This document shows positions 5,740 through 31,856 of a stretch of 42,332 nt of DNA, one piece after another. This DNA comes from Nemertoderma westbladi (taxonomy: Eukaryota > Animalia > Xenacoelomorpha). The stretch covers positions 1-42,332 of the forward strand of contig JAUCBJ010002704.1 of assembly GCA_032718475.1 (NCBI GenBank), written 5' to 3'. Position 1 is the stretch's first letter. Each line of letters opens with the position of its first letter. The notes below the pieces were generated by a model. The model was not told the DNA's origin. It saw nothing but the letters and a program-made list of their open reading frames with translations, and did not search any database. Position numbers and translations under genes: made by a program.

Positions 5740-8700
5740 CTGGAAGCTACTGTAGATTAGGAGATCAAATACATAAAGTTCAAGCCTACAAACTACGTAA
5801 ATTCATTCACAATGCAGACCCAGACAGCATAGCCAGTGTCACCCGTTCAGACTAATAAGGTCACATCATCAAACTGCAGTAGAAACTGTCGATGAGTTAT
5901 TTATAAGAAAACAACACAGAGGACACAGCCAACTATAAACAAAAACATTGTTCTAACAAATTTATTGTCTTCGAAGAAATTGATGACTCTTTGACAAGCG
6001 ATACTGCGACAAGTGAATAACTTGAATAAACAAGTCACTTATACTAAACAAAATACGGGCCAATGAGCATGTCTCAACATCCGTCTCCCAAACCGTAACT
6101 AGTGAGTCCCACCCAGTACGGGCCAATGAGCATGTCTCAACATCCGTCTCCCAAACCGTAACTAGTGAGTCCCACCCAGTACGGGCCAATGAGCATGTCT
6201 CAACATCCGTCTCCCAACCGTAACTAGTGAGTCCCACCCCAGTACGGGCCAATGAGCATGCCTCAACATCCATTTCCCAAACCGTAACTAGTGAGTCCCA
6301 CCCCAGTACGGGCCAATGAGCATGTCTCAACATCCGTCTCCCAAACCGTAACTAGTGAGTCCCACCCAGTACGGGCCAATGAGCATGTCTCAACATCCGT
6401 CTCCCAAACCGTAACTAGTGAGTCTCACCCCAGTACGGGCCAATGAGCATGTCTCAACATACGTCTCCCAAACCGTAACTAGTGAGTCCCACCCCAGTAC
6501 GGGCCAATGAGCATGTCTCAACATCCATTTCCCAAACCGTAACTAGTGAGTCCCACCCCAGTACGGGCCAATGAGCATGTCTCAACATCCATTTCCCAAA
6601 CCGTAACTAGTGAGTCCCACCCAGTACGGGCCAATGAGCATGTCTCAACATCTGTCTCCCAAACCGTAACTAGTGAGTCCCACCCAGTACGGGCCAATGA
6701 GCATGTCTCAACATCCGTCTCCCAAACCGTAACTAGTGAGTCCCACCCCAGTACTGGCCAATGAGCATGTCTCAACATCTGTCTCCCAAACCGTAACTAG
6801 TGAGTCCCACCCCAGTACGGGCCAATGAGCATGCCTCAACATCCATTTCCCAAACCGTAACTAGTGAGTCCCACCCCAGTACGGGCCAATGAGCATGTCT
6901 CAACATCTGTCTCCCAAACCGTAACTAGTGAGTCCCACCCAGCACGGGCCAATGAGCATGTCTCAACATCCGTCTCCCAAACCGTAACTAGTGAGTCCCA
7001 CCCCAGTACGGGCCAATGAGCATGTCTCAACATCTGTCTCCCAAACCGTAACTAGTGAGTCCCACCCCAGTACGGGCCAATGAGCATGTCTCAACATCCA
7101 TTTCCCAAACCGTAACTAGTGAGTCCCACCCCAGTACGGGCCAATGAGCATGTCTCAACATCCATTTCCCAAACCGTAACTAGTGAGTCCCACCCAGTAC
7201 GGGCCAATGAGCATGTCTCAACATCTGTCTCCCAAACCGTAACTAGTGAGTCCCACCCAGTACGGGCCAATGAGCATGTCTCAACATCCGTCTCCCAAAC
7301 CGTAACTAGTGAGTCCCACCCCAGTACTGGCCAATGAGCATGTCTCAACATCTGTCTCCCAAACCGTAACTAGTGAGTCCCACCCAGTACGGGCCAATGA
7401 GCATGTCTCAACATCCGTCTCCCAACCGTAACTAGTGAGTCCCACCCCAGTACGGGCCAATGAGCATGTCTCAACATCCATTTCCCAAACCGTAACTAGT
7501 GAGTCCCACCCCAGTACGGGCCAATGAGCATGTCTCAACATCTGTCTCCCAAACCGTAACTAGTGAGTCCCACCCAGTACGGGCCAATGAGCATGTCTCA
7601 ACATCCGTCTCCCAAACCGTAACTAGTGAGTCCCACTCAGTACGGGCCAATGAGCATGTCTCAACATCTGTCTCCCAAACCGTAACTAGTGAGTCCCACC
7701 CCAGTACGGGCCAATGAGCATGTCTCAACATCTGTCTCCCAAACCGTAACTAGTGAGTCCCACCCCAGTACGGGCCAATGAGCATGTCTCAACATCCATT
7801 TCCCAAACCGTAACTAGTGAGTCCCACCCCAGTACGGGCCAATGAGCATGTCTCAACATCCATTTCCCAAACCGTAACTAGTGAGTCCCACCCCAGTACG
7901 GGCCAATGAGCATGTCTCAACATCTGTCTCCCAAACCGTAACTAGTGAGTCCCACCCAGTACGGGCCAATGAGCATGTCTCAACATCCGTCCCCCAAACC
8001 GTAACTAGTGAGTCCCACTCAGTACGGGCCAATGAGCATGTCTCAACATCTGTCTCCCAAACCGTAACTAGTGAGTCCTACCCACTCCGGGCCAATGAGC
8101 ATGTCTCAACATCCGTCTCCCAAACCGTAACTAGTGAGTCCCACCCAGTACGGGCCAATGAGCATGTCTCAACATCCGTCTCCCAAACCGTAACTAGCGA
8201 GTCCCACCCACTCCGGGCCAATGAGCATGTCTCAACATCCGTCTCCCAAACCGTAACTAGTGAGTCCCACCCCAGTACGGGCCAATGAGCATGTCTCAAC
8301 ATCAATTTCCCAAACCGAAACTAGTGAGTCCCACCCCAGTACGGGCCAATGAGCATGTCTCAACATCTGTCTCCCAAACCGTAACTAGTGAGTCCCACCC
8401 AGTACGGGCCAATGAGCATGTCTCAACATCTGTCTCCCAAACCGTAACTAGTGAGTCCCACCCCAGTACGGGCCAATGAGCATGTCTCAACATCAATTTC
8501 CCAAACCGAAACTAGTGAGTCCCACCCCAGTACGGGCCAATGAGCATGTCTCAACATCTGTCTCCCAAACCGTAACTAGTGAGTCCCACCCCAGTACGGG
8601 CCAATGAGCATGTCTCAACATCCATTTCCCAAACCGTAACTAGTGAGTCCCACCCAGTACGGGCCAATGAGCATGTCTCAACATCTGTCTCCCAAACCGT

Positions 8701-10970
8701 AACTAGTGAGTCCCACCCAGTACGGGCCAATGAGCATGTCTCAACATCCGTCTCCCAAACCGTAACTAGCGAGTCCCACCCACTCCGGGCCAATGAGCAT
8801 GTCTCAACATCCGTCTCCCAAACCGTAACTAGTGAGTCCCACCCAGTACGGGCCAATGAGCATGTCTCAACATCTGTCTCCCAAACCGTAACTAGTGAGT
8901 CCTACCCCAGTACGGGCCAATGAGCATGTCTCAACATCTGTCTCCCAAACCGTAACTAGTGAGTCCCACCCCAGTACGGGCCAATGAGCATGTCTCAACA
9001 TCCATTTCCCAAACCGTAACTAGTGAGTCCCACCCAGTACGGGCCAATGAGCATGTCTCAACATCTGTCTCCCAAACCGTAACTAGTGAGTCCCACCCAG
9101 TACGGGCCAATGAGCATGTCTCAACATCCGTCTCCCAAACCGTAACTAGTGAGTCCCACCCAGTACGGGCCAATGAGCATGTCTCAACATCCGTCTCCCA
9201 AACCGTAACTAGTGAGTCCCACCCAGTACGGGCCAATGAGCATGTCTCAACATCCGTCTCCCAAACCGTAACTAGTGAGTCCCACCCAGTACGGGCCAAT
9301 GAGCATGTCTCAACATCCGTCTCCCAACCGTAACTAGTGAGTCCCACCCCAGTACGGGCCAATGAGCATGTCTCAACATCCATTTCCCAAACCGTAACTA
9401 GTGAGTCCCACCCAGTACGGGCCAATGAGCATGTCTCAACATCCGTCTCCCAAACCGTAACTAGTGAGTCCCACCCAGTACGGGCCAATGAGCATGTCTC
9501 AACATCCGTCTCCCAAACCGTAACTAGTGAGTCCCACCCAGTACTGGCCAATGAGCATGTCTCAACATCTGTCTCCCAAACCGTAACTAGTGAGTCCCAC
9601 CCAGTACGGGCCAATGAGCATGTCTCAACATCCGTCTCCCAACCGTAACTAGTGAGTCCCACCCCAGTACGGGCCAATGAGCATGTCTCAACATCCATTT
9701 CCCAAACCGTAACTAGTGAGTCCCACCCAGTACGGGCCAATGAGCATGTCTCAACATCCGTCTCCCAAACCGTAACTAGTGAGTCCCACCCAGTACGGGC
9801 CAATGAGCATGTCTCAACATCCGTCTCCCAAACCGTAACTAGTGAGTCCCACCCAGTACGGGCCAATGAGCATGTCTCAACATCCGTCTCCCAACCGTAA
9901 CTAGTGAGTCCCACCCAGTACGGGCCAATGAGCATGTCTCAACATCTGTCTCCCAAACCGTAACTAGTGAGTCCCACCCCAGTACGGGCCAATGAGCATG
10001 TCTCAACATCCGTCTCCCAACCGTAACTAGTAAGTCCCACCCAGTCTGTTTAAGATGAGATCAAAATGATAAGAGGTAGATGATAGTTAGTTTTCTAAGG
10101 AGAAGAAGTGTCAAACCATGTGATCACTATGATGAAAATTAATTTCGACGCGATAACTTTCATAAAAGGAGCACTAACACAAGCAAGATTTTAGGGATGT
10201 GTACTTCCTACAAGTTCAGTCTCTCAAGGCCAATTCAAATCTGAATGAAAGCTCCCAGGTTGGAAAATATATTCCAACAATTTGGATTTGCTGAATCTCA
10301 TAAACTAAAAATAATTTTGTAAAATTAAAGGAATTCTATCAGGCAGAGTCACAACTTGGTTTCATGGTCCGTCGATGTAGCATCTTTAACAAAAAATCAC
10401 GAACAAAGAAATCCAGGATGAGGCAAATTGGTGGAATCGAATCATCAACTGGCAGGTACAATGGCAGCTCTACGATCACCTGAATCTAGCACAACTAACA
10501 TGTACTGTAAAACTGAGCAATTAGAAAAACCAACAAAATGATGTTATCTATAGGATAGTGCAGTACATCCAACAACAAGGACGATTTGACCTCAACTGAC
10601 CATATATGACTGCCATGAGTTTCATGCAAATCCGCCTTAAATAACTCTCGATAACTTTGATGTTCTAGAGATTCAAGAACTCTAGAATGTAAACTTTTTT
10701 TAAAATAAGCATACCCAGTCGAATAAAGATGGCGTACATTTTTAAAATATGCATACCCAGTCGAATAAATATGGCGCACAGAGTGCCCCATAGAAGTCGC
10801 AAGTATAACCAATCTACCTGAAGGGGGATCTCGTACCCTTTTAGTACGAGCATACGTTTCTCGACTATGAGATTATTCGTGAGCCAAATACAGCTTATGA
10901 TGATGTTATCTGCAAAATCAAGCTGCTAGCAGAGACTTTCCACAGAAATGGATGGATATTGCGAATAGGT
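5740..10970 (+). mobile_element. Highly decayed Ty1/Copia (GalEa-like) pol remnant interrupted by the 63-bp satellite
   Basis: Broken motifs in Copia order: RLGDQIHKVQAYKLR (~5755-5800, integrase C-terminus-like); DAITFIKG and FRDVYFL (~10145-10210, RT-like); RQIGG..INW (~10420-10450); ASITNLPEGGS (~10797-10830, like RNase H DASFANLPDGGS); LLAETF (~10925, like TLAAET). Many stops and frameshifts. Confidence 0.5.
6054..10045. repeat. 63-bp tandem satellite, ~63 copies
   Basis: Consensus TACGGGCCAATGAGCATGTCTCAACATCCGTCTCCCAAACCGTAACTAGTGAGTCCCACCCAG with 62-64 bp variants (CCC/CCCC, AA/AAA, CCGTC/CTGTC/CCATT). All ORF-track entries at 5962-9935 are translations of this array. Confidence 0.98.
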
Positions 10971-13998: not shown

Positions 13999-15677
13999 CA
14001 TGCAATTCATGGATCAGCATACATTCTTAACATTCCTGGGAGACTTTAATGCAAGTCTGCATCAATCACCTACATCGCCCTGGGTCTATAGCAATTGTGT
14101 CAACCGAAATTCCGCCCATCTTCAGGATTTTATCTCTGGAAATTGACAGTTTTCGGCTGGAACCCAGTTCAAGAAGCGAACTGGAAAGCTATGGACTCAT
14201 AGTGGACCCAGTGGTCACAAGTCCCAGATAGACCATATTCTGTTTCGTAGGAAGTACAGGAGCTCTATACAAGACTGTAATGCATTTACACTTCGACCCT
14301 TCTCCAGTGATCACCGCCTTATTGTGGCCAAGGTAAGACTTAGTCAGCGTGCTAGCAGAACAACGAAATCTACCTTGCCGGGACATGACTGGTCCTCTCT
14401 GTTGCAACAGCCAAGTGTGAGATACAGCTTCACACTACAGCTGAGCAACAGGTATGAGGTTCTTGCCTCTGAGGCGGCAGATCACTGTGAGGGCTATACT
14501 GCCTTCACAGAAGCAGTTAAGTTAGCAGCTGCAGAAACAGTTCCTGTATACACTCGAAATAGGAAATGGGCCCCCTGGACTGACAACAAATTCCAGAAGT
14601 GCCGAAATGTCCTATATAGGGCGCAGAAAGAGTCCCGACTCAAACAGACTACAGCGGCGAAGGCAGTTAAGGCTGCATCTAGATCCCTGAACAGGCAGTA
14701 CTCTGTTAATCTACAGGAGCTAATAAACCAACAGGTTGTTGCCATCAATGATGCCGACGACAGCACGCAATCATCCCAGGCATGGAAATCGATCAACTTG
14801 CTTACTGGGCGGAAAAGCCAACCAACCACCAAGGTTAAGGCTGAATCACCAGCCGATCGCCTCAATGGTTGGAAGGCCCACTTTGAAAAGCTCCTCAATA
14901 TTGACAGGGTATTGCCTGATAACTTTATAGAAGTAAAAGTGTCTGAGTCTGTACTCCCAGATATTCCCATTGGCGATATCTCCTTTGCAGAAGTGAAGGC
15001 TGCTGCAAAGAGCATTAAGACCAATCGTGCCTGTGGAGTAGATGGTGTTCCCCCCTTTTTTTTATCCCATCATAGTAGTCATGTACCGAACAACAAGAGT
15101 CCCACAAGAAATGAAAACAAATAAGTTGGTGCCAGTTCCCAAGAAGGGCAACCTAACACTCTATGGTTCTTTTCGGGGAATCTCATTGATCTCGATTGCT
15201 GCAAAGCTATACAATAGAATTATATTAAATCGCATCAGGTATCCCATTGAGAGACTGCTCCGTGGAAATCAGAATGGGTTCCGTAAAGGTCGTGGGACCA
15301 TGGAGCCCATTTTGGCACTTAGAAGGATAATTGAAGAGTTATCATAAAAGAAAGACAAGCATCTGGGTGTTATCTTTGTTGACTTCTTCAAGGCCTTTGA
15401 TTCAGTCTCCCGATCACGTATGTTCAGCATACTTTCATTATATGGGATTCCTGATGAAATTATTGCAGCAATCAGATCAGTATACGTTGGTTCGACAACA
15501 TTTGTGTCTACTGTTGATGGTGACACAGAACCATTTGAAGTGTTATGGGGCGTCCTCCAGGGAGACACACTTGCACCATTCTTGTTCATAATTGTGGTTG
15601 ACTATGTTCTACGCATGTCCTTAGATCATCATAATGATGATGGGGTGATGATAACTCCACCTACTGGTTCCAGAAGT
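13999..15677 (+). mobile_element. RTE-clade LINE, 5'-truncated, left part (APE C-terminus, linker, RT N-half), pseudogenised
   Basis: LGDFNA, QIDHILFR and SDHRL endonuclease motifs; RT motifs VPKKGNL..FRGISLISIAAKLYNRII, QNGFRKGR, FVDFFKAFDSV, GVLQGDTLAPFLFIIVVDYVLR; stops and frameshifts. Confidence 0.9.
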
Positions 15678-16846
15678 TGTAAAAGCTTTTGCGTCATTAA
15701 CCGGTTATTTTCCCTTAAAGTACTCTGTAGTTGGTTTGCCAGGCATAAAAAGGCCGTGTCCTTGCTGTACTGGTGTTTTAGAGGACATAAAAGTCATTTC
15801 TTCTGTATTTGTACTGTATTTGTACTTTAGAGGACATAATCCGCAATCTCGTGACGCGATAAGCTAGATACTCTTGAAAACAGTGTCGCTACCATGACGA
15901 CGGCTAACAGCTGATATTGCCACGTCGACATTTCTTTGTTTCTTTGTTCTCTAGTTGTTCGGTTGACCAATCAGAGCGTTTTTTGTCTCTGTGTTGGAGG
16001 TGTATACAGAACTCAGTAGTTCAGTGTGTTGTTTTTGCCCAGAGCCTAAGAACATCGGCTTTTGGCACCTCCGTATATCAGCATTCTTTAGCTTTACATT
16101 AGTAGGCTTAATTATAGAACGTATATCTGTTATCAATGCAATTCATACAAATCAAACCAATTATATGTAATTCATATCTTACATTACTGCTTTTACTGTT
16201 GGTTATTCGTTATATTTGTTGATGAAATATTATATCGGAATACTGATCAATAGTCAGACACCCCACCTTCTTGATATACTAAAGGTTAGAGAGACCGGTT
16301 ACAGATAAACGATTGCGACCTATGTTGAGTGGTTTGAAGTGAATCTAATGCTATTTCATATGCCCAACATAAATTGTCTGTTGCTCTCTTTATACGTGAC
16401 TAAATTTAGTGAAGGTCGGCAGATTAGTGAGCAGTATTGTGCAGCATTGTGTATGATTGTAACTGATAACAAAGCATCTCCTAAAGAATGCGCCATATAC
16501 ATAAATCTATAGCCTTTTCGTTGTGTCTGGTTTAAGTCATAACTCTGTTTACATATTTAGAGCGCCACGTCCTAAAGGAACTGTTAATATTTCCCGAAAG
16601 TGAATAATATTTGTCAGAGATTATATATTACGATCAGTCGAATAATACGGTAGGCTTACACTATCAATCATTAAGCTCCGAACTCAGTCTCCCGGGTATA
16701 TCCAACGGGTGAATGATTGCGCATAGACTGGCTTCGGCTAATGTAGTGTATCAAATACTCGTCATAAAGCTAAAGAATATATATCATCTAAAAGACATTC
16801 TAATTTTGGCAGGTTAAACTGTCAAAGGTCTTCAAAAGCGCAAACA
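15678..16846 (+). repeat. 5' LTR (1169 bp)
   Basis: Starts TGTAAAAGC, ends GCGCAAACA; matches 31857-33025 except C16236/T32415 and A16430/T32609 (by eye). Contains CCAAT (~15966), TATA-like GTATATCA (16073-16080) and Inr-like TTAGT (16099-16103). Confidence 0.97.
16123..16133 (+). promoter_or_regulatory. Putative self-primer ATATCTGTTAT in the LTR (second copy at 32302-32312)
   Basis: Exact reverse complement of the 11 nt abutting the 5' LTR (16847-16857). Confidence 0.75.
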
Positions 16847-16857
16847 ATAACAGATAT
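16847..16857 (+). promoter_or_regulatory. Non-tRNA primer-binding site ATAACAGATAT
   Basis: Directly follows the LTR terminal CA, does not start with TGG, and pairs with 16123-16133. Confidence 0.75.
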
Positions 16858-17129
16858 TGCTTCTGGATTGCGGTGTAAGCAATCTAGTAGAAAGTACCGG
16901 TCGACCGGTAACCAGTAGGCCTGACTGCCTGATCATCCGGACCGGTACCTACAGTAGTACAGGTACAGCAGTATTATTTGATTGTGGTATTGTATACCGG
17001 TAGGCTGTTTAAGAGATTAGGGACTGTACACCCCTTGTTTCTTTTGGAGCTTACTTATTTCTGTCAGTTTTATTTATTTGTAGGCCAGTATTGAGCAGAA
17101 GGCGTGTAAGCCTGCTCAGATTATACAGC

Positions 17130-17700
17130 TAATTTGTAGGCTTGACTGTTGGCTAACTGTTGATTAGGTCTGAACGGATTGCAGTGCATGTAGAGTGTAT
17201 GTCCGATAAAGAACGGTTAGGAAGTAGGGGCAGCCATAGCTGTAAGGTAAACCTCCATCTAAAGAATAAGTCGTACTACTGGGTTAGAACGCATACTACT
17301 TAACCATTTCGGAGTCTGCATGTCCTGTGGTTTATTTAGGCTTGATAGGAGTCCGCCAGCGTTTGGTCTGTACTTTGTTTGTGTAGTCTGTATGGGTAGC
17401 GTATAATTTTATTTAGATAATTTGTAGGCTGGATAGTTGTCTGGCTGCTGTTGTGTTTGAGGAAATTTCGGTGTGTGTAAAGCATCTGTCCGATAAAGAA
17501 CGGTTAGGAAGTAGGGGCAGCCATAGCTGTAAGGTAAACCGCCATCTAAAGAATAAGTCGTACTACTGGGTTAGAACGCATACTACTTAACCATTTCGGA
17601 GTCTGCATATACCGTAGTTTGTTTAGGCTTGATAGTAGTCTGTCAGTATTTGGTCTGCATTTTGTTTGAATAGTTTGTACGCGTAGCGTAATATTTATTA
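17130..17700 (+). repeat. Two ~287-bp leader repeats, each a long G.U-rich RNA stem-loop with a conserved 122-nt apex
   Basis: Cores 17200-17321 and 17487-17608 differ at 1 nt; the flanks are diverged in sequence but pair in both copies. Confidence 0.85.
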
Positions 17701-18649
17701 TTCAGAGTTTATGCGATTATTCGCAACATTCATATCCCCAAGTTTATTCCTACAGTAATTGTGTTTGTTATACATACCGTTATAGTTAAACTAACCCCGG
17801 TACTACATCAGGGCTGCTCGGCGTAGGTAAAGACTGGAGATTTTGTGCTTTGGTCACTCCGGCAGATACCGTGGTTCTTTTAGCTGTTCAAGTATTTTTA
17901 ACTACTAATTATTTGTTGTACAAGTACTTGTACCTAATTTAGGGTTTAGTGTACAGTACTTTCCGAAGGTAATTAGTGTGTAGGCAGTGTATTTGTGTTG
18001 TAAAGTGGTTAATAGGCACGTTGGTTCTGGTAGACCGCGGTAATTAACTTCTAGGTAGGGACACTCCATGATACATAACGTAGTACCTATAGCGATACGG
18101 TTATAGGTCGTCAGGCGGTGGTATTTTCCTATCTGGACAACGCAGTATATTTACTACTACTTATTATTTTCAAATACCGTAGTAACCTGTCCGTTGTAAT
18201 AACCAGATATTCTAACCCTTTGTTAGGCTGGTTAGTAGACTTCTTGTAAAATTACCCTAAAAATTCGTATTTGTGTATTTGTAATTAAAATTTTGTGTTT
18301 ATTTAGAGATTGTAATCTCAACCCGAATTGTACGTAATTTGTAGTATTAAGTAACTTAGGTAAATTAGAATTATTTGTTTTAGTGTCCAACAAGTAGCAC
18401 TCCACTGAGAGCGCACAGCTTATGTGTAGTGACTCCCCCAGAAATAATAACATTTATTTCAAACATTGACAAAACCCATTAAACGGGTATATATATATTA
18501 TAAATCAACTCAAACGATTTATAAATAGTAGGCCTGCCATATAACAATTAGGTCTCAATATCTGTTGGACTACTGCTCAAATAACGGCAATAAAGTAAGT
18601 TAAAGTAACCAAGTAACCCTTAAAATTCAGAAATTCAATTATTCTAAAA

Positions 18650-18910
18650 TAATTGACATACCGGTATTTACAATAGGCTTATTATATTTATTTCTATAAA
18701 TTTTAGGTTGAAATCATACCGGTATTCTGTAATTAATTCTAGTCTGTAATTATACTTATATATATACATTATAAGTGTAAACTACATACCGGTATCCACG
18801 ATAGGCCTATTATATATTTATATATTTGTGCTGAAATGATACCGGTATTCTGTAATTAACCTAGTCTGTAATAATACTTATATATACCCTAAGTATACCG
18901 GTATTCTAAT
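18650..18910. repeat. Five ATACCGGTAT palindromes at ~55-70 bp spacing within a ~120-bp duplicated unit upstream of gag
   Basis: Copies near 18658, 18716, 18786, 18839 and 18895. Confidence 0.8.
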
Positions 18911-19035
18911 ATTATATATCACGCTACACTGAGTAGCAGTATCGGTAATTAATTACTAGGCTAGCAGTTAAGGCTGAATTACTAAACTTGCTTAGACTGT
19001 AATATAGCAGTAGGCATTCAACTGTGTAAACAAAC

Positions 19036-21294
19036 ATGTCTGATACTAAGCAGAACCTGTCAGACAGTTTATTAGATGTAACTATCTGCGACTCAGATAA
19101 GGGTGTAGAACCGTCTAGTCCTAAATTCAGTTCACCTCCCACTGTGAGGAAAGTCATCCCTCCAGTAGTAATAACAGAACCTAGGCTGGTCCAACATCGT
19201 AGGTCTATCATAGGCACTCGAGCCCAGGTCAAGCGGGACCAAGAAGCAGCGGAACAGCAACAACCCGCGAGCCAAGAACTTATTTCTCAGCGGCCCGACA
19301 GCGCCAGTAGTGAAGATACTGTAGAGCTGACACCCGAGCGCGGAGCAAGGATGTCTGATGCGGTTTATTCGGATCCCCTTCTCATCCTTCCTGCAGCCGT
19401 ACTCACTAGGTTATTGATCGCGGTGGAAGAACACCAGATCGATTGGGCGAGAAGTAAGCGATCAACTAAAGATCGTTATGAGGGATACACAAGGGAAGAA
19501 CTGAAGTCTATGGTTGAGTCACAATGGAACTTCCCCGGACCCAGACTCCCGTTTGATTTATCAGAAGCTGCCTGGGAAGACATACACCGGATGGGAGTAG
19601 CCAAGGAAACCATCGATCCAGCTGTGTGGAAGAGGTCCGCAGCCGGATACGCACAGGGATTCTTCAGCTCTATGGAGCGAGTAGAAAAACAACTGTTTCA
19701 ACAACCTCAAGGACCTCAAGAGCAGGGACAACTGCTTTATCAAGTTAGAGAAAGAATTCTGCGAATCAGGCTAATATTATCAGCCTTTGAAGAAGCTTCT
19801 AAAAGAAAACAAGACATGTCGTTGCAAGTTGCCGTAAAGACTTGGTTTCAACGGGTGAGTCGCCAGGTTCAAGGAACAGCTCAGTGGAAAGCTCAGCTGG
19901 AGGAGCGCTCAACCCATGGAGAATCAACGGACACTACTTTTTCCCAAGTGGAAAGTGAAGCGACGGCAGAGAAACCGCATAAGAGGGATGCCATTGACAT
20001 CTATCTGTCAGACTATCAGCGTTTTTTGGGAGATGAAGAGTTGAGGAGAAGGCTAGATGGACTTAGCCCTAATAGTGAAGGAGCCCAGCGTGTGTTGGAT
20101 GCAATTGATGTGGATAGGTTAGTGGCGAACCAAGCTAAATTCGATGAACAACTCCGCATCGCTAGAGACCAAGAAGAAAGGGTGAAGAAAAAACGCATAG
20201 AAGACAGAAAGAAAGCAGCAGTAGCAGCTGCAGAAGCCGAAAGGAAAGCAGCCGAAGAGGAAAGTAAAGCAGCCGAAATGGAAAGAAAGGCGGCATCGGC
20301 AGCGGCAGAGGCAGAAGCGAAAAGAAAAGCAGCTGAAATGGAAAGAAAAGCGGCAATGGCAGCGGCAGAAGCAGAACGGATAGCGGCTGAAGAGATCGCC
20401 CAATTAGAATTGGAAAATATTCAGGAAAATCAAGACTGCATAAATAAACAGTTAACAGCTAGTAATATGCAGATGATGAATCGATCTACTCCCAAAAGAC
20501 AGGGATATACATCATCTGAGGAAGGCGATACCACCGATACTGAAGGCAAAGGAAATAGATCTCACCTAAGCCGACGTAAAAGAACATCCCACCGTCAGAA
20601 ATTGCCTGATTTGCCTCCAGCTGTTAGAAGGCAACTAAATAACACCAACTTAGGTAGTACAGAACCCACAGACCAAATAATTACAATAGAGAGACTCCCT
20701 ACTATAGTAGATGAGCCTGAAATAGTTAGGCCTGTTCCCGAAGCCACCCTTTCGGTCGTAGAGACACCTGTACTCCCTGAACCTACCTCTCAATTCCCGT
20801 TGCACAGCACTAAGCTACTTGTGCCCAGCAGAACAGCCCATGAGACAGTTCATGCCCTGGACTCCGAGCGAAATATTCATGATTTGTCGCCCGTTGTCCC
20901 TCGTCCACCCGCTACGACGTTGGCGGATCCCGTTTCGGCGGTTGATTGGGTGGACGAGAGACGGCGGGGGATGGACATTCTCCTCGAAAAGATGGAGGAG
21001 AATCGAGTACGCTCCTCCCAACAGGTCCGAGAGTTAGAAGGGACTGTTCAACAGTTAAAGGGAACCGTAAAGGAAAGTAGGTTAGAGTTGCAAGAAGTGC
21101 AGCAAAATATCGCGCTAGAACGTGATAAATTAGTAAATTTACAAAAGGGTATACCACCACCCCCTGTAACAATGTGTCAACCTGTTAGGTCTGAAGTATC
21201 TCATGCGCAAGGTGTGGAGCCTGCACGCATCTATACTGCTAGCGAAGTAGAAACTCCTATAGTGAACCCTATTAAGGGTAATTATAGATGTTGA
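19036..21294 (+). CDS. BEL/Pao Gag N-terminal region, 752 aa, coiled-coil and low-complexity; probably joined to the next ORF by a frameshift
   Basis: First long ORF of the element; AAEMERKAA-type A/E/K/R helical repeats and a C-terminal heptad region; the next frame is open from 21266, overlapping this stop. Confidence 0.8.
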   Translation: MSDTKQNLSDSLLDVTICDSDKGVEPSSPKFSSPPTVRKVIPPVVITEPRLVQHRRSIIGTRAQVKRDQEAAEQQQPASQELISQRPDSASSEDTVELTPERGARMSDAVYSDPLLILPAAVLTRLLIAVEEHQIDWARSKRSTKDRYEGYTREELKSMVESQWNFPGPRLPFDLSEAAWEDIHRMGVAKETIDPAVWKRSAAGYAQGFFSSMERVEKQLFQQPQGPQEQGQLLYQVRERILRIRLILSAFEEASKRKQDMSLQVAVKTWFQRVSRQVQGTAQWKAQLEERSTHGESTDTTFSQVESEATAEKPHKRDAIDIYLSDYQRFLGDEELRRRLDGLSPNSEGAQRVLDAIDVDRLVANQAKFDEQLRIARDQEERVKKKRIEDRKKAAVAAAEAERKAAEEESKAAEMERKAASAAAEAEAKRKAAEMERKAAMAAAEAERIAAEEIAQLELENIQENQDCINKQLTASNMQMMNRSTPKRQGYTSSEEGDTTDTEGKGNRSHLSRRKRTSHRQKLPDLPPAVRRQLNNTNLGSTEPTDQIITIERLPTIVDEPEIVRPVPEATLSVVETPVLPEPTSQFPLHSTKLLVPSRTAHETVHALDSERNIHDLSPVVPRPPATTLADPVSAVDWVDERRRGMDILLEKMEENRVRSSQQVRELEGTVQQLKGTVKESRLELQEVQQNIALERDKLVNLQKGIPPPPVTMCQPVRSEVSHAQGVEPARIYTASEVETPIVNPIKGNYRC

Positions 21295-21367
21295 TAATGA
21301 TATTCCCTATAGACCGGATCATAATCCGAGAAATTTATATACCGATAACTCGATATTAAATAACACG

Positions 21368-24300
21368 ATGGCCCAAGAAAGTTTCACGCGTCAAATGGCT
21401 AGAACCGAAGCCCGGCAAGCGGTAAAGGTGGGAGAGATCATCAAGTTCAATGGAGATGAGATGAAATGGTTACCTTTTAATGAATATTACAAAGATAACA
21501 TACAGAACTCTGTGCTATCTAATGGAGAGAAACTTAGATTCCTCATCGAGTGCTTGGAAGGATCTCCCAAGTTAATGGCGTTAAAGTTTATTGGACATCC
21601 TGACGGATTAAGACAAGTTTGGGATACACTAAACATCAGGTATGGTAATAGGAATAACATAGCTGGGTATTTGTATGCAAAGTTGGTAGCGCCCCGAAAG
21701 TTTATTAGCAGCGGAATTATAGAGTTTTCCGATGAGATTCAGGAGATCTGCAGACAATTAGATTGGCTAGGTAAGTCTCATGAGTATCAGAATGCTATGG
21801 TTATTAGAGCAGTGGCTTCTACTTTACCGAAGGGTGGAGTAGGTACACGCTGGGATAAGAAAGTGCTATATATGATGGAACAACAACGACGAGACCCTAC
21901 CATGGCTGATCTCATGTCATTCCTAGATGGAGAAGTGAAATTACAGCTCCTGAAACTGTCCAGAGAGAAGACACCGGAAAACAAGGTAATTGAAAAACCC
22001 GTCGCTAGGAGAAAGGTAACACCAGTGTGTTATACAGATGATGGCGAAAGCCAGACTTCTCAAGGAGAAGATAGCGGGAAAGACACTGATAGATCTTATT
22101 ACGTAAATAAAATGCCTAAAGATCAGGTAAATAAATTCAAGTCTCGAACAAATGACAGGAGAGAACAGGTAAGAAAAACTCCTCCTACGTCTCCCAAGAT
22201 AATTCAGGTGAGAAAGCCCGAAGAAAAAGCAAGTGTACACAATGTTACTCAGAGTAAAGTAAGTAACATCAAACCGAAATGTGCGCTATGTGATGGAACC
22301 CATCGCTTAAATATGTGTGATGAATTTCTAAAGAAATCTTTAACTGAGAGACGTGAAGTCATGTGGGACAAGCGGTTGTGCTATAATTGCCTCAGACAAG
22401 GACACCAACGGCGAACCTGTTACTCTGACACAAGATGTGCCAAGTGCGGTGCGAAACATCATATCTTGTTGCACACTGAATTCGAGCGAAATAGTCCGAG
22501 TCAGGTAAGTGATTCCAAACTACATGTTCAATTCAGTGATGTGAACGACACTGATCAATCTGAGATGGAAGGATTCTATACGGACGAATTCTCCGACGAA
22601 AACGAATCCTGTTACATGATAAATACCACAGTGTATCGAGCACTCATTTATGAAAAAGATACAGACATTGACCTCGCTCTAACTACTTCTGATCGACAAC
22701 CATCTTGGAAAGCGCCAACTTCCAATGTAGGGATTAGAGAATTTCCTGTGGTACAGGTAAGGGTCCACGGACCAAAAAGGAGTTATGTAGTGAACGCCCT
22801 CCTTGACTCCGGTAGTACAGGAACATTCATCGACAAAGAGCTAGCCGAAGACATATTCGCTGGACAACCCAAGTTCCGAACTAAGCTAAACATGTCAGGA
22901 ATTATGCAAGTTTGGAAATCCACAGTAACCGCGGATTATTATGTAGGTGTGTTGTCCACCCCCCAGGACGAACTAGGAGAACATAGCATAAGGTCAGTGA
23001 AAATGGTGGCTATAAAGAACTTCGCTACTACTCAAGCAGACCTTTATAATTGGGACGAGGATGAGAGCATCCAACATCTTAAGATACCTCGATTCCAGAC
23101 AGATTATCCTGGAGTGCAAATACTCATCGGCCAAAACGCGCATGAGGCGCTCGAGACATTGGAGAAACGACCTGCTCAACCGCAACCTCTACAAGTTTAT
23201 GCGGGAAGAACTAGAGTAGGTTGGTACTTTACTGGCCCTTCCCGTAGAACTCTAATGGAAAGATTACCGAAAGATCAGATATATCAAGCGCGAGAATGGG
23301 AAGTTGAGAACAGTGAGTTCGACGATCCAACTGAGGGAACTCCATACTCCTCAGACAACGACGATATACATCAACTTTTTGATGAGGAGAATGCCATCGA
23401 TCTCCTTAAGGAAAGCGAGACTTGGCAAAATCAAGTGAACTTATGTCAACTCCTTCACCCATCTGAGCGAGACGACTATAACGATGAGCTTAATGACGTC
23501 ATTGAACGTTATAATGCCAAGACTCGGGATGAACACGCTGTGAGATTTTTTACTCAAGAGGTCGTAGAGCCCAACTCCTACGATAAGGCCCTATCGGTGG
23601 AGGAAGAAAGAGCCAAGCAGATCCAAGCGACAACTACTCGTTTTCTTAAAGATCAAGGTAGGTATGAGATCGGACTTCCTTTCCAAAAGCGAGAACCAAA
23701 GTTCATTAACAACAGACCTTTGGCAGAGAAAAGAATTGCTCAACTACATCGACGCCTTACGGCAAATTCTTCAGCTAAAGAAATGTATAAAACACAGTTG
23801 AAGAAGTTTATTAGCAAGGGATATGCGGAGCTAGTACCGGAAGAAACCCCTATAACTGAGAGAACGTATTACTTAACTCACCATTACGTTCCCAAACCCA
23901 GTAAACCCCATGAAGTACGAGTGGTGTTTGACGGTTCCGCCCTCTATATGGGCCAATCCCTTAATTCTGAATTGTTACCCGGACCCAACTTACTCCAATC
24001 TTTGTTGGGAATATTATTAAGGTTAAGACAATACTCCATTGCTTTCGCCTCAGATATAGAAGGCATGTTCTTACAAGTCAAAGCGCTGGATAGGGATCGA
24101 GATAGCCTACGATTTTTGTGGTGGCCTGAAGGAGACCTCAATAAGAAACCGGTGGAGTACTGGATGACCATCCAAGCTTTTGGGATAATCTCGAGCCCTT
24201 CAAATGCCTGTTCCGTGGTACGCACCACTGCAGATGACAACCGAGACGCCTTCTCTAAAGAAGTGATCGACAATATCAAACGAGACATCTACATGGACGA

Positions 24301-25576
24301 TAATCTGAAGTCCCTTCCATCAGTCGAAGAAGTCATTGAGGTCGCTAAAGGAACGGTAGAATGCTTAAAGAAAGGTGGATTTCGATTAACTAAATTCACC
24401 AGCAACTCCCGTGAGTTTCTGGAGTCGATCCCGGTAGAAGATCGAGGAGCAAAAGACATAGATCTAATAAAGGATGATCTCCCAGAAACTAAGACCCTTG
24501 GTTTGAAATGGGACACAGAAAGATATATCCTGTTTTTCCAACTAAAACAGCGAGATAATCCAGTTCGGACTAAACGGATTTGTTTAAGTATCCTGAGCAC
24601 TTATTTCGATCCATTGGGATTTATTAGCCCAGTTATATTGATTGCTCGGAGTTTAGTACAACAAATGTGGCTTGAAAACCACTCATGGGACGATCCACTT
24701 AAGGGAGAATTATTAAAGAAGTGGATGAAATGGGAAGATTCTCTACCAGCCATCGAAAACTTCATAATTTCCCGTTCATATTTTGGTCATGTTCTCCCTA
24801 CGTATTCATATCAACTCCATGTGTTTGGAGACGCCAGCGATATGGGAATCGGTATAGTAGCCTACCTAAGGGTGGAAACTCCGGACGGAATTAAAGTCGC
24901 CTTGGTTACCTCTAAGGCATTGATAAACAACAAGTTAAAAGTTCCTCGAGCGGAGTTAAAAGCGGCTCTATACGCTACAGCTATCGGCCGGAATGTAACA
25001 GAACAGATCGACTATCCTCTGGAGAAAACTGTCTATTGGACCGACGCTTTACTCTTGTTGGAGTATATAACCAATGAAGTCTGTCAGTTCAGCGTCTTCG
25101 TTACCAACAGAGTAGCTATTATACTCAGTCGCACGACGATGGATCAATGGAGACATTGCCCCGGAACGATTAATCCAGCGGACATCGCTTCCAGGGGGGC
25201 AACTCCACAAGAACTGGTAGATACTCCAGACTGGTTAGGTGGACCCGACTTCCTCTACAAAGAAGAAGAAGAATGGCCTCCTCATCTTACTACAGCAGAA
25301 ATTAGACAGGCCAAGGGAGCGGAGAAAGTCAAACCTAAAACTCAGGCGAGTAAATCGAAGTTATTCAAACCCACAGTGGATCTGTCTGTACTACTTCCGG
25401 AGACGACGCTTTGGATCAGAAACCCACAGCCACAAATAAACCCGTTGTGGAAATCCGTGATAAGGATTGGATATCTGGCATACCAGACGTCTCGCAAGGA
25501 CTCTCACCTCTTCTGCAGAGAGCGATACATCACTACAGTTCCTGGAATCGGCTCTGTAAAGCCGTTACATATTTAA
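21368..25576 (+). CDS. BEL/Pao Gag core, zinc knuckles, protease, RT and RNase H
   Basis: KFNGDEMKW..KLRFLIECLEG (DUF1759-like); CALCDGTHRLNMC, CYNCLRQGHQRRTC, CAKCGAKHHILLH; LLDSGS; YLTHHYV..RVVFDGS..SLNSELLPGPNL..DIEGMFLQV..YMDD; FGDAS..PRAELKA..WTDA..NPADIASRG. True reading likely shifts frame near 25354-25400. Confidence 0.95.
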   Translation: MAQESFTRQMARTEARQAVKVGEIIKFNGDEMKWLPFNEYYKDNIQNSVLSNGEKLRFLIECLEGSPKLMALKFIGHPDGLRQVWDTLNIRYGNRNNIAGYLYAKLVAPRKFISSGIIEFSDEIQEICRQLDWLGKSHEYQNAMVIRAVASTLPKGGVGTRWDKKVLYMMEQQRRDPTMADLMSFLDGEVKLQLLKLSREKTPENKVIEKPVARRKVTPVCYTDDGESQTSQGEDSGKDTDRSYYVNKMPKDQVNKFKSRTNDRREQVRKTPPTSPKIIQVRKPEEKASVHNVTQSKVSNIKPKCALCDGTHRLNMCDEFLKKSLTERREVMWDKRLCYNCLRQGHQRRTCYSDTRCAKCGAKHHILLHTEFERNSPSQVSDSKLHVQFSDVNDTDQSEMEGFYTDEFSDENESCYMINTTVYRALIYEKDTDIDLALTTSDRQPSWKAPTSNVGIREFPVVQVRVHGPKRSYVVNALLDSGSTGTFIDKELAEDIFAGQPKFRTKLNMSGIMQVWKSTVTADYYVGVLSTPQDELGEHSIRSVKMVAIKNFATTQADLYNWDEDESIQHLKIPRFQTDYPGVQILIGQNAHEALETLEKRPAQPQPLQVYAGRTRVGWYFTGPSRRTLMERLPKDQIYQAREWEVENSEFDDPTEGTPYSSDNDDIHQLFDEENAIDLLKESETWQNQVNLCQLLHPSERDDYNDELNDVIERYNAKTRDEHAVRFFTQEVVEPNSYDKALSVEEERAKQIQATTTRFLKDQGRYEIGLPFQKREPKFINNRPLAEKRIAQLHRRLTANSSAKEMYKTQLKKFISKGYAELVPEETPITERTYYLTHHYVPKPSKPHEVRVVFDGSALYMGQSLNSELLPGPNLLQSLLGILLRLRQYSIAFASDIEGMFLQVKALDRDRDSLRFLWWPEGDLNKKPVEYWMTIQAFGIISSPSNACSVVRTTADDNRDAFSKEVIDNIKRDIYMDDNLKSLPSVEEVIEVAKGTVECLKKGGFRLTKFTSNSREFLESIPVEDRGAKDIDLIKDDLPETKTLGLKWDTERYILFFQLKQRDNPVRTKRICLSILSTYFDPLGFISPVILIARSLVQQMWLENHSWDDPLKGELLKKWMKWEDSLPAIENFIISRSYFGHVLPTYSYQLHVFGDASDMGIGIVAYLRVETPDGIKVALVTSKALINNKLKVPRAELKAALYATAIGRNVTEQIDYPLEKTVYWTDALLLLEYITNEVCQFSVFVTNRVAIILSRTTMDQWRHCPGTINPADIASRGATPQELVDTPDWLGGPDFLYKEEEEWPPHLTTAEIRQAKGAEKVKPKTQASKSKLFKPTVDLSVLLPETTLWIRNPQPQINPLWKSVIRIGYLAYQTSRKDSHLFCRERYITTVPGIGSVKPLHI

Positions 25577-27171
25577 AGAGATGTTTTCACCATCACTACT
25601 CTGGGATGAAAACAAAGGATGATACCGCTCCAATCACATCAGTGCAGGTCCATGTTATTAAAGACCTCCCTAAATATAAGGTACCCGACAAGTTTCTGAA
25701 GGAGAAGATCAGTTATCAGGAGCATGAAGAAACCAACAAACAGATGCTGAGACTCTTACAATGCTATGAAGATTCCGATAAGTATTTCCTGTTGTTGAGA
25801 AATCCACAGATGCGCTTAAGGGATCGTTTCTCTAGCACAATGATAGATGGGTTGATACGTGTTGGAGGAAGGTTAACGAATGCCCCATTATCCTTTGATA
25901 CTAAGTTCCCCATACTCATTAGAAATCTTGAAATACAAGTCAAGATGATTGTAGATGTTCACAGCAAACTTTATCATGCTGGTAGAGAACGAGTTCTTAG
26001 CGAAATTCGAACTCGCTATTATTTTTATAAACCCCGTAGAGCTCTGAACCAAGTTCTTAGGAACTGTATACCCTGTAGGAAAGCATTCAGTAGGCTTTTA
26101 ACACAGCGAGAGGCAGAATTACCTAGGGAACGAGTAAGCTTTTATGAACCACCCTTTACTAATACCGGTGTGGATTTATTTGGCCCTATTGAAGTATATC
26201 GTGCTAGGACTATAGTCAAGAGATGGTGTGTAATCTTTGTTTGTATGACTTGTAGAGCCATCCATCTCGATATGGTGAACGATTTATCTACCAACAGCTT
26301 TCTATTAAGCTTACGACGACAGATCGCTCGCTTTGGCACGAGTAACACGATGAGATCTGATAAGGGAACAAACTTCATTGGTGCCAACAATGAAATCAAA
26401 GCTTACGTCAAAGATTGGAACCAAAGACAGGTGGACGACCAACTACGAGTAACAGCGTCTAGTTGGACCTTCAACGCCGCCGACGCCCCTTGGTGGGGAG
26501 GAAGTTGGGAGAGATTAATAAGAAGCGTGAAGACAGCATTTCATTTTATAGTGCCTTGCCGCGCTTATCTCACCGACGAACTTTTGCGGACGTTAATGGA
26601 AGAAATCGCCGCCTATCTCAACGAGAGACCGCTTATGCCAGTCTCATCGAGTCCCGATTCCCTGGAAGCGCTAACACCCGCGCACTTCCTACTAAAGAAA
26701 CCTGTAGCCATGCTCCCACAATCGGAAATCACAGACGGAGACGAATACTGCCGACAAACTTGGCAACTCATGCAGTTGTTATCCCGTCGTTTCGCTGACC
26801 ATTTCGAAAAACATTATCTGCCCACGCTACAACTTCGAACTAAGTGGTTTGCGCAGCAAGAAAACGTTAGCGCTGGAGACATGGTTCTTATTGTGGATGT
26901 AGATCTTCCACGTAAGAGGTGGCAGACAGGTCGTATAATCGAGACACACATCTCGGATGACGGTTTGGTGGGATCGGTAGAACTCGTCGTCATGCGACGT
27001 AACTTCAAGAAACCGGGAATTGTCTTCGAGACGCAGCAGCTCAATCGCCCAGTGGGACGTTTATGTTTACTGGAAAGAGACAGAGAACTCTCCGGAAACT
27101 ATGGGAGACAAGATACTCTTCCCACGACCACCTCCCTAATCCAACAAACATCTAGGGACTCCCCAACTTAA
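25354..27171 (+). CDS. BEL/Pao integrase, in the -1 frame relative to RT/RH
   Basis: Frame open from 25354; YSSWNRL, GLIRVGGRL, H..H..CIPC zinc finger, GVDLFGP, SDKGTNF, WGGSWERLIRSVK, LNERPL, LTPAHFL and a DUF5641-like C-terminus. Confidence 0.95.
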   Translation: MEVIQTHSGSVCTTSGDDALDQKPTATNKPVVEIRDKDWISGIPDVSQGLSPLLQRAIHHYSSWNRLCKAVTYLKRCFHHHYSGMKTKDDTAPITSVQVHVIKDLPKYKVPDKFLKEKISYQEHEETNKQMLRLLQCYEDSDKYFLLLRNPQMRLRDRFSSTMIDGLIRVGGRLTNAPLSFDTKFPILIRNLEIQVKMIVDVHSKLYHAGRERVLSEIRTRYYFYKPRRALNQVLRNCIPCRKAFSRLLTQREAELPRERVSFYEPPFTNTGVDLFGPIEVYRARTIVKRWCVIFVCMTCRAIHLDMVNDLSTNSFLLSLRRQIARFGTSNTMRSDKGTNFIGANNEIKAYVKDWNQRQVDDQLRVTASSWTFNAADAPWWGGSWERLIRSVKTAFHFIVPCRAYLTDELLRTLMEEIAAYLNERPLMPVSSSPDSLEALTPAHFLLKKPVAMLPQSEITDGDEYCRQTWQLMQLLSRRFADHFEKHYLPTLQLRTKWFAQQENVSAGDMVLIVDVDLPRKRWQTGRIIETHISDDGLVGSVELVVMRRNFKKPGIVFETQQLNRPVGRLCLLERDRELSGNYGRQDTLPTTTSLIQQTSRDSPT

Positions 27172-27725
27172 AATGGCTGGAGTGGGTGTGTGACCATATT
27201 ATTTTATATTTGTATTTGTTTTATTTTTATATTTATGTATGTATTATTATGTAATTTTATTTTAATCGTTTTATTTAATTTTATTTAGTAACATGTTATT
27301 TTAGTGATCATTTAGTAGATTAGTGCAATATACTAGTGTTTATTACGTACGTAATTACTTATAATATATATTTAGTGCGACGGCGAGAAATAATTATTTT
27401 TCTCTTTCCTTACTGCCCGTATTACATTATCAATACGTGACTACAGTAAGATGAAATCTTCGTACTTATTAAAGTACAATAAAGCCACTACTATATTCAA
27501 GTATTATTGGTAGGCAGAGTATTAGGAATGCAAAGTTCAGATCCTCGTGTCTCGGCTAAACCAAGCTCTGGGTAGACCTTGGAAACGACTTGCCTCTTCA
27601 CACTGACATTGCTTCGTGCGATATTGCTCTCATACCGTATATTAAATAATACATATAGTAGCGTGATGTCCCTTTAACAGTAGCGTATAACGCAAATAAA
27701 TCTGTTAAACCCTTTGACCATCTGC

Positions 27726-27992
27726 AATTCTAGTCGATTAAGATATCGCGGCACCCACCGAATTACTTGAAAGACAAAATTCTAGAATCAATGGTTAACG
27801 TCCCCAGACAAGTTCTGGAATAAACTGGTGCCCATCCTAAATATTAATTATTAATATTTACAAAAATCTGTCAAATATCAGATCCTTTAAAATTCTAGTC
27901 GATTAAGATATCGTAGCACTTACCGATACTCTTAAAAAGACAAAATTCCTAGAATTAAGGATCCTATGTCCCCAGACACATTCTGGAATAAA
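27726..27992 (+). repeat. Duplicated ~100-bp structured unit in the post-pol region
   Basis: AATTCTAGTCGATTAAGATATCG...GACAAAATTC(C)TAGAAT...GTCCCCAGACA..TTCTGGAATAAA at ~27726-27825 and ~27891-27992. Confidence 0.8.
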
Positions 27993-28815
27993 ATTGTGTC
28001 TATTTAACTATCAAATAATAAAATTTACGGGAATAAATTTAAATTCATATATTTAAATGAATTTAATAAATTGCAATTTTATGCAATTTATAACATTCCC
28101 AAAATTCCATTAATTAATAGATCATGGGAGCGGAGATTCACTCTATTAAGTGTATTTGTGTGCGAGAATCTCCAATGCATAGTCAATAGCCGATAAAATT
28201 CATAGAATCATGTATAAAGGGGGTATTGACCATTAAAGAATTACTATTAAATAGCATCCCAGATCTGTATGCATGAGAATTACCCTAATTCTACCGCTAG
28301 CTCTCCATAATGTCACCATGGCAACTACCACGCTAGAATTAGAAGTGAGTTAAAAGAACAATAGAAAGCATGCCCCATTGGATAGCATAGGGAATAAATA
28401 GCGCACTGCTAGTATCCAAGGATACATAATAAATACAGTGACATTCTGGAAGGCACTGACTAACGGACAAATGGCCCGAATGTGTGCAGTTTGTTGCAGT
28501 TGTGTTGAATTTGTGCGTTTGTAGGTGAATGTTACTACTAAGGTGTGTTTACAGTAGCGAGTCGCAATTGTGAAAGTAACCCTAACTCTCCAAGAAGAAC
28601 CTGCAGTACATCTAAGCCTTTGGGACGGACAGTTAAGTGACTTGTGCCGGTTATCGTTGTCGTTGTGTAGCTACATCGTTGGCGAAAGCACAGCGATGAC
28701 GGTACATCGGCGCTGAGGATCTTACACTGTCCGGGGGCAAAAGAGGGGTAGGCAGCGACGCCCGCTAGCCTAATATATATAAACTCATTATAATATTGAT
28801 AAACTCATAGCAGAT

Positions 28816-29214
28816 ATGACTGAGTTGATAGAAGATGATCTTGGCATCAGGGAGCGATATACTCTACCTTTACAAGCGTTTGTCGATAGCTTGATACGCG
28901 GCGACGCTGGTCCAACTACTACGGAGGATGATGGTCGTTATATCGAACCGCCGATGTCCCCGGAGCAACTTACGCGTGAATTGGACTATAGAAAGTTCAC
29001 CGCTCGCTATACGCATCGTAATGGTACGTATATGGACTTCTTAACTACCGGCCACCCTATCGATTTACACGATACGGACGATGTGGATACCGAAAGGGAA
29101 ATGGTTTTATTTAAATATCATACCCAACGGAATCGGAACGATAAGCCAAGAATAGAACACGAGAACTCTATTCGAAATCAGCTCGAAAGAAAGAACGTGG
29201 ATGAAGGCTTGTAA
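28816..29214 (+). CDS. Accessory ORF, 132 aa, charged, unknown function
   Basis: ATG-initiated, protein-like composition, inside the LTR element; preceded by TATA-like TATATATAAA (~28774) and a possible acceptor TAGCAG. Confidence 0.55.
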   Translation: MTELIEDDLGIRERYTLPLQAFVDSLIRGDAGPTTTEDDGRYIEPPMSPEQLTRELDYRKFTARYTHRNGTYMDFLTTGHPIDLHDTDDVDTEREMVLFKYHTQRNRNDKPRIEHENSIRNQLERKNVDEGL

Positions 29215-30002
29215 AGACAAATATAGGAGAACCACTGGAGAAGAGACGTATGTTAATGTCCAGGGTCCATAATGTGAATAGTTTTCCCCGGGGCACGGGT
29301 GCTCGCGGGCGGTCTCCTTCGGGAGGCTGTAAATTTCTCTTCCCTCATCGTTTTCTTGTAATTCTTGTGATCAGTGTCACAATTAAAAGACAAGAATGAA
29401 TGATGACGTGACGGAAAACTGGTCCATTGTGGTATCTTATGGATACTACCCTATATCCTCCCTCCTCTTTACTCCCTTTATCCCTCTATACATCACTATT
29501 GAAAATACAACCCACTTCGTCACACCTTCTCTTCCCAATGCGCTCGGAACTTTGGGAGACGATCGACCAATCCTAGTTGTATCGTGGTATGAATCATACC
29601 GCCTCCTAATAAATCTCCCCACCCTTTACTGTTTATTTGTATGCTCATATTGGTGACCTCACCTCTTGTCCATGTACCATTCTGTTGATATTTATGATAT
29701 CAACTTCCACCCTCTCGTTGTTGATTAGAAAATCAACCACCAATGATTTCCTTAAGTCCACAACCGTGATACAAGGACTGAAAGGACACGCGGATAGTTT
29801 GTGAACAACTGGTACCATTATGTGTCATAAATCTGGTTGTTCACCCCCTAATCACTGGGGATAAATTCATTTGGAGATAGTCATCGAATGATGCAATCCT
29901 CCTACTGAGATCGTATTTCGGAATATTTCTGAATATGACATAGGTCTTCCCCTGCTCTCTACCACTACCATCAATGGAGACCTACAGAACGACTTTCGGA
30001 AT

Positions 30003-31778: not shown

Positions 31779-31847
31779 CTGTTTAGAGTATTTTTATATT
31801 TTAGAAACTGTGATTTGTTATATTTTATAGACTTAAATCCCATTTTC

Positions 31848-31856
31848 TGGGAGCGG
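31848..31856 (+). promoter_or_regulatory. Polypurine tract TGGGAGCGG
   Basis: Purine-rich run directly before the TG of the 3' LTR. Confidence 0.8.

Follow-up and report, generated by a model that had tools for sequence, protein, structure and literature searches.

BEL/Pao retrotransposons are generally tRNA-primed. The locus described here raises the question of what starts reverse transcription in a BEL/Pao element whose primer-binding site (PBS) has no tRNA signature and matches, in complement, a stretch of its own long terminal repeat (LTR). The window, by which the whole analysed stretch of 42,332 nucleotides is meant, contains one such element in full, and its features are collected in Table 1.

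Table 1. Positions of the features of the element in the window
Feature	Position	Strand	Description
Target-site duplication (TSD)	15673-15677 and 33026-33030		5 bp, GAAGT, on both outer sides of the LTRs
5' LTR	15678-16846	+	1169 bp, TG..CA; direct repeat
Arm A	16083-16096	+	14/14 complement of 16765-16778; sequence and shuffles
Block common to family copies	16085-16134	+	runs X1, X3 and X4; divergence behind 16134-16137
Predicted 3' end of self-primer	16123-16133	+	ATATCTGTTAT; predicted cut after 16133
Arm A'	16765-16778	+	pairs with arm A; lies 68 nt upstream of the PBS
Predicted hairpin near U5 end	16804-16827	+	9 bp; local fold
PBS	16847-16857	+	ATAACAGATAT; adjoins the LTR, no TGG
ORF1	19030-21294	+	754 aa stop to stop; alanine/glutamate-rich repeat
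ORF2	21266-25576	+	DUF1759, triple Cys-His box, protease, RT, RNase H, PF05380
ORF3	25354-27171	+	integrase zinc finger, DDE motifs, DUF5641
Extra ORF	29892-31778	+	628 aa, second half Cys/His-rich; sense, between pol and 3' LTR
Polypurine tract (PPT)	31849-31856	+	GGGAGCGG; adjoins the 3' LTR without spacer, as the PBS also does
3' LTR	31857-33025	+	direct repeat

The element and its class

The full-length element occupies 15678-33025 and is young, with only two mismatches between its LTRs (at 16236 and 16430), which form the sole long direct repeat pair around the self-match. It interrupts a LINE-like reverse transcriptase (RT) fragment, as seen from an RVT_1 match on the frame entering the LTR. 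Contigs in two runs (X1 and X5) that pass from 15677 into sequence resembling the flank behind the 3' LTR represent other copies of the LINE. The family is very abundant, with 20,701 contigs aligning in X1, a host DNA run in which depth is not copy number.

In this copy gag-pol is split over three overlapping frames. ORF1, which has no Pfam match, likely encodes the N-terminal part of gag. ORF2 carries the triple Cys-His box and the LLDSG-type protease (motifs at aa 339, 372, 391 and 512), the RT motif YMDD and the RNase H motifs FGDAS, PRAEL, WTDA and NPAD, and the PF05380 match in the element interior reaches an E value of 4e-36. The Pao-type RT/RNase H, the DUF1759 gag, DUF5641 and the order PR-RT-RH-IN all mark the element as BEL/Pao, as do the TG..CA LTRs, the PPT, the TSD, the protease type and the triple Cys-His box, the last being described as a BEL/Pao feature in the available text of PMC554778. 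Membership in Tf1/sushi is contradicted by these domains and by the lack of any chromodomain match. The element is BEL/Pao by every tested mark and Tf1-like in logic. Identity to its closest relatives in the database is 38-44% across RT/RNase H; PF05380 is present in every homolog listed, and the relatives bearing a eukaryote name are marine animals.

The extra ORF upstream of the 3' LTR has no Pfam match; in the atlas it weakly resembles CCHC zinc-knuckle proteins (best score 0.86), which is a lead only. A PPT-like word followed by TG (27180-27191) comes directly behind the pol stop and 4.7 kb upstream of the real 3' LTR; it may be a second plus-strand primer or the relic of an older LTR start. 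The 2.2-kb leader contains a 287-nt tandem duplication (17178-17696).

The primer-binding site and its complement in the LTR

The preliminary description had recognised a BEL/Pao element without a tRNA-type PBS, in which the 11 nt after the 5' LTR are the exact complement of a stretch inside it, and this is confirmed. The PBS follows the LTR without a gap and is the exact reverse complement of 16123-16133; it occurs once in the window, and its reverse complement only at 16123 and in the 3'-LTR twin at 32302. There is no TGG before 16864 and no tRNA gene in the window, and a scan of 15600-19100 against Rfam gave one match, at chance level. The element shows the Tf1-type arrangement of a PBS at the LTR end complementary to its own LTR over at least 10 nt.

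An 11-nt match at offset 0 was obtained in 25 of 20,000 dinucleotide shuffles of the LTR, and an 11-mer at any offset from 0 to 5 in 79 of 20,000; an LTR complement of at least 11 nt is found at 5 of 14,990 internal positions. The match fell within the 52-nt conserved block described below in 7 of 40,000 local shuffles, and 3 of 500 shuffled PBS reached the score of this element when matches were allowed to be contiguous or spliced. When thousands of elements are scanned, such shuffle odds carry little weight by themselves, and independent support was therefore sought.

The pairing had also been proposed to continue beyond an internal loop (AGAA with TTCT, then GCTTA with TAAGC). These words do lie where they were placed, but their pairing does not exceed chance. 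Pairing of the 34-nt window at 16101 with 16847-16885 yields -20.1 kcal/mol, whereas other LTR windows reach -23.8 kcal/mol; opening the extended duplex would cost 29.1 against 19.0 kcal/mol gained, and family insertions fall inside it at 16110 and 16117.

A primer assembled by splicing was tried for this element and rejected, the best match (5-7 nt with GT[AG] donors, offsets 0-3) being shorter than the contiguous 11 nt. A donor-like word at 16167 and an acceptor-like one at 16800-16812 outline a candidate intron (16167-16812) downstream of the primer, which, judged from these words, could remove most of the distance between primer and PBS. Since no canonical poly(A) signal is present in 16134-16846, the R region is undefined.

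Conservation of the predicted primer region among family copies

Contigs of four runs were aligned on 16078-16177, yielding 190 (X1), 45 (X3), 7 (X4) and 0 (X5); X1, X3 and X4 are DNA runs. The copies share a block whose right edge lies one base past the predicted primer end at 16133. Summed contig depth in X1 drops from 135,114 (16130-16133) to 1,440 (16138-16141), about a hundredfold within five bases; over the same edge it drops about fiftyfold in X3 (84,605 to 1,577) and from 534 to 0 in X4. The loose ends behind 16134-16137 are A/C-rich and mutually unlike in X1, X3 and X4, with 7 of the 17 loose-end rows listed starting there, and 15 of the 23 pieces listed (of 242) end at 16134-16137. 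Indels among the matches listed occur at 16110, 16117 and 16140 and none in 16123-16133, while per-site conservation within the block is read only from a few zero-difference pieces, no substitutions being listed. Block conservation up to 16134, together with the relatives described below, gives comparative support to the earlier proposal of an own-RNA primer ending at 16133.

Two words that we take to be initiator-like, at 16078-16082 and 16099-16103, would place the beginning of the predicted primer at +44 or +23. The block edge also fits an initiator with a downstream promoter element (+28 to +33 corresponding to 16128-16133 if +1 is 16101). Because a core promoter fits the edge too, block conservation alone is not specific to priming. 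The TATA-like word at 16073, read in the preliminary description as lying upstream of the transcription start, does not hold up in the family: among the matches listed, 16075 A>G and 16077 A>T make up 45-47% of the depth in X1 and 78% in X3.

Directly behind the predicted primer end, the stretch 16135-16200 is hypervariable, A/C-rich and G-poor in family copies, and may keep the cut site unstructured. One X4 contig is a rearranged copy that joins leader-like letters, as found near 16921-16943, directly to 16102-16134.

Self-matches in distant BEL relatives

Relatives comprised 97 loci, of which 17 came from genome contigs and 80 were the best of 534 from a metagenome scan. The anchored test covered the 15 loci having a direct repeat whose 3' end does not touch a contig end, the rest being left out. 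Matches could be contiguous or span a GT-AG junction in the LTR and could lie at an offset of 0-3 to the PBS. As this offset range and the LTR ends of L006 and L092 were set after seeing the data, the fair control is a cross-matrix in which every PBS is compared with the other LTRs under the same rule.

A self-match of 11-16 nt was found in 10 of the 15 anchored loci, representing about eight families. Two of these are contiguous (L038 and L092); in the other eight (L002, L004, L006, L014, L020, L030, L033 and L046) the match, 11-15 nt long, spans the point where two exons join once a GT-AG intron is removed from the LTR, most of them with a strong donor word and a pyrimidine-rich acceptor word. 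Shuffled PBS reached the score in 0 of 500 cases for nine loci and in 2 of 500 for L038. In the cross-matrix the 11-16 nt found with the own LTR were not attained by non-sister LTRs, which did not exceed 10 nt (0 of 152 pairs reaching 11). Between the sisters L002 and L004, primer and PBS have changed together at two positions that face each other.

The agreement between PBS and LTR on which the preliminary description had let its reading depend thus extends to most of the anchored relatives, and is absent from five (L010, L011, L034, L044 and L068). L010 and L011 have a TGG site and self-matches of only 6 and 3 nt at the true LTR end; in L034, L044 and L068 the repeat ends are not CA-type LTR ends, and L044 has a TGG site elsewhere. 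Together with L075, three of these loci (L010, L011 and L044) make up the four TGG-type elements of the sample, in which TGG stands 1-7 nt behind the end of the LTR or an ACA word.

In 6 of the 9 elements in which both could be read, the bases that separate the PBS from its LTR are complementary to those that separate the PPT from its LTR, with the PPT end assumed. This element and L014 have no spacer, L006, L020 and L033 have two bases and L038 has three; mirroring was not seen in L002, L004 and L030. Mirrored spacers are expected if these sites are true primer sites. The match starts at GT in nine of the ten anchored relatives and, counted from that G, at AT in none. The likeness to the Tf1 PBS pointed out in the preliminary description is real, in that both sites begin ATAAC (as given in the available text of PMC11042837), but for this reason it is probably a coincidence. 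Primers end in ..AC in the eight relatives with a spliced match and in ..AT here.

L092, with its contiguous match, and the candidate L056, with a split one, share a clade, as expected of intron loss. Many relatives assemble such a primer by splicing, and the contiguous one of the present element is likely its version without an intron. In a FastTree tree of 91 rows (pieces below 330 aa left out unless labelled) the element sits on a long branch (1.04) with a best identity of 43%, and is drawn beside TGG elements with unstarred support; no named reference elements are in the tree, and since the placement is unsure no claim is made on the number of origins. An origin independent of Tf1 is plausible.

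An unanchored scan of 63 loci had 19 that reached 11 nt, compared with 4 and 2 for its two control orientations. Several of its top matches are unrelated inverted repeats, so that it served only to list further candidates (L005, L022, L023, L026, L047, L056, L059 and L072, with L066 at 10 nt). On these observations the trait is no one-off of this element but occurs across many marine BEL lineages, for the most part in splice-built form.

Beside their spliced matches of 12 nt, L006 (4400-4408) and L020 (795-802) match the PBS contiguously over 8-9 nt, at a distance of about 28 nt behind a word resembling an initiator. Forty-eight loci gave 3 tRNA calls. An exact 25-nt LTR-end pattern had 0 matches in the metagenome contigs, and none of the 30 stretches matched in viral contigs is a relative. 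Animal BEL elements (L010, L011, L014 and other genome-contig loci) are found inside bacterial genome records, that is, as host DNA in bins.

A proposed fold-back mechanism and RNA folding

The pairing is a real feature and is likely functional. The class of the element, the position of its PBS, the exact 11-nt complement, the conservation of the block to 16134 and the same self-match in distant relatives are established, and the comparative sequence evidence makes it likely that the primer is some form of the element's own RNA. That this RNA folds back in cis, is cut after 16133 and begins the minus strand exactly at the LTR end is the reading favoured here, with fair rather than high confidence. 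Transcription would start at about 16080 or 16101, making the primer a capped 5' piece of 33-54 nt in which pairing is confined to the last 11 nt. The helix of 14 bp between arm A and arm A' would dock the 5' end of the RNA near the PBS across a gap of 713 nt, forming an H-type pseudoknot. By analogy with Tf1, the element's own RNase H, whose four catalytic motifs can be read from the sequence, would cut after 16133, and the freed 3' end would be extended into minus-strand DNA from the LTR end. As PBS and PPT both adjoin the LTRs, the resulting cDNA would be blunt.

An inverted repeat of at least 14 was the longest in 10 of 2000 shuffles of the LTR, and the left arm, arm A, opens the conserved block. 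When the RNA starts at 16080, the arm A helix is predicted with a probability above 0.9 at 13 of 14 pairs. Arm A has further possible partners: 16081-16091 is complementary to 16481-16491 at 11 of 11 positions, and the 9-mer CTAAAGAAT, complementary to a stretch of arm A, occurs at 16481, 16770, 17259 and 17546 (R/U5 and leader), two of these four copies lying in the tandem duplication, and is absent elsewhere in the window outside the LTR twins. Within arm A', 16777 A>C is found at 40% in X1 and 65% in X3 among the matches listed (40 of 401 rows), and a G at the facing base is seen in loose ends at similar shares, on unlinked contigs; from these shares a compensatory change is possible. The same helix could equally join the 5' arm to the 3'-LTR copy of the other arm, circularising the RNA for strand transfer.

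The self-priming mechanism, as modelled, is weakest in its folding. The arm A helix crosses the primer helix, and nested folding therefore cannot show both. In nested folds the primer duplex has a probability of at most 0.003 if the RNA begins at 16101 and of 0 if it begins at 16080; a beginning at 16123 alone brings it to 0.04-0.57, and it returns to 0 once the RNA extends to 17100, and the primer is predicted to pair with 16464-16500 rather than with the PBS. With the arm A helix kept, opening primer and PBS would cost 11.0 kcal/mol and their pairing return 10.5 kcal/mol including the initiation penalty, a calculated near balance which suggests no barrier for a Gag-chaperoned step.

These results bear on the most credible alternative, that own-RNA priming takes place in trans, from a second packaged RNA or a short LTR-derived transcript. 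Its appeal lies in the poor showing of the cis duplex in nested folding, in a PBS that is largely unpaired in local folds, in the abundance of the family and in the 713 nt that separate primer and PBS here, compared with 44-200 nt in the anchored relatives. Arm A nevertheless offers a docking helix in cis, and Tf1 is described as acting in cis in the available part of PMC7175516, which leaves priming in trans rather unlikely, though a serious contender.

A second alternative gives the primer role to a host RNA fragment, for example half of tRNA-Asn(GUU), with the LTR match a by-product of a promoter word or of chance. Half-tRNA priming is known in Ty1/copia (PMC6317226, in the text available), and the primer holds CTGTTA, which also occurs in the anticodon loop of tRNA-Asn in bacterial stand-in genomes. 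The two stand-in tRNA-Asn genes, however, share 6 of 11 nt with the primer and have another base opposite the first one of the PBS, no Rfam match of weight lies on 15600-19100, a self-match inside the block is as rare by chance as reported above, and relatives with other PBS letters each match their own LTR. On balance such a fragment is an improbable primer. Still less credible is a purely regulatory pairing, an RNA switch in packaging, translation or PBS masking, with something else as the primer. The several candidate partners of arm A (16481, 16770, 17259 and 17546) are as expected of a switch, but the match sets in directly behind the LTR, and no other register regenerates the LTR end; PBS and PPT spacers also mirror each other in most readable elements. 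Finally, a non-BEL outer element supplying LTRs and PBS around an inserted BEL coding region, to which the PPT-like word and TG after the pol stop might point, can be practically dismissed: no inner LTR pair was found between 15678-19100 and 27100-31900 at word size 7, so that LTRs and coding region belong together, and ordinary BEL relatives follow the same PBS logic.

Relation to known self-priming elements

In Tf1, the RNA's first 11 bases are paired to the PBS, and cleavage by RNase H falls between bases 11 and 12 (PMC7175516, available text). Tf1 and Tf2 of S. pombe, Tj1 of S. japonicus and the Tf1/sushi and Tcn1 chromoviruses (Ty3/gypsy) likewise have an 11-nt PBS that adjoins the LTR and is complementary to it, and no tRNA site. 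For the TAR lineage of Ty1/copia (Houba, Osr-1), self-priming has been predicted from an LTR complement of at least 10 nt located 0-5 nt from the LTR end, as set out in the accessible part of PMC6317226. The present element passes this test too; the TAR elements differ in being plant copia elements, known by prediction only. Fungal GalEa copia elements and bivalve TRIMs also have no tRNA PBS but differ in having a local hairpin, with no LTR complement found in them according to the available portions of PMC5445492 and PMC6934838. The TGG-type BEL/Pao elements of the sample (L010, L011, L044 and L075) have the same PF05380, DUF1759 and DUF5641 matches, PR-RT-RH-IN order, triple Cys-His box and 5-bp TSD, but they carry TGG at the distance given above and, in L010 and L011 (tested at the true end), have no self-match.

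A full-text literature search, assessed by titles and the starts of abstracts, returned no report of self-priming in BEL/Pao, although subscription journals, Repbase entries and supplements may mention it; the terms PBS, tRNA and priming are absent from the available portions of PMC3118150 and PMC554778. Self-priming has so far been described for the Tf1/sushi chromoviruses and predicted for one copia lineage, so that its wide occurrence in BEL/Pao would extend it to all three LTR superfamilies and to animal-specific elements. It can be proposed, with confidence a little short of even, that a large share of marine BEL/Pao elements has replaced tRNA priming by an own-RNA primer, mostly assembled by splicing, and that the present intron-less branch docks its capped leader through the crossing 14-bp helix, its primer overlapping the core promoter. 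If true, this would add two routes of primer assembly not described for Tf1, and through the splice-built primers of the relatives the onset of reverse transcription would depend on host splicing. It would also free the elements from control by tRNA fragments, explain why PBS-based annotation would miss many marine LTR elements, and have a bearing on which of tRNA priming and self-priming is the older, a question raised in the accessible part of PMC3601003.

Elsewhere in the window, a 63-nt GC-rich tandem repeat (63 copies, 95% matches) occupies 6054-10045, and long inverted termini about 2.2 kb apart, resembling those of a DNA transposon, are found at 35043-37367.
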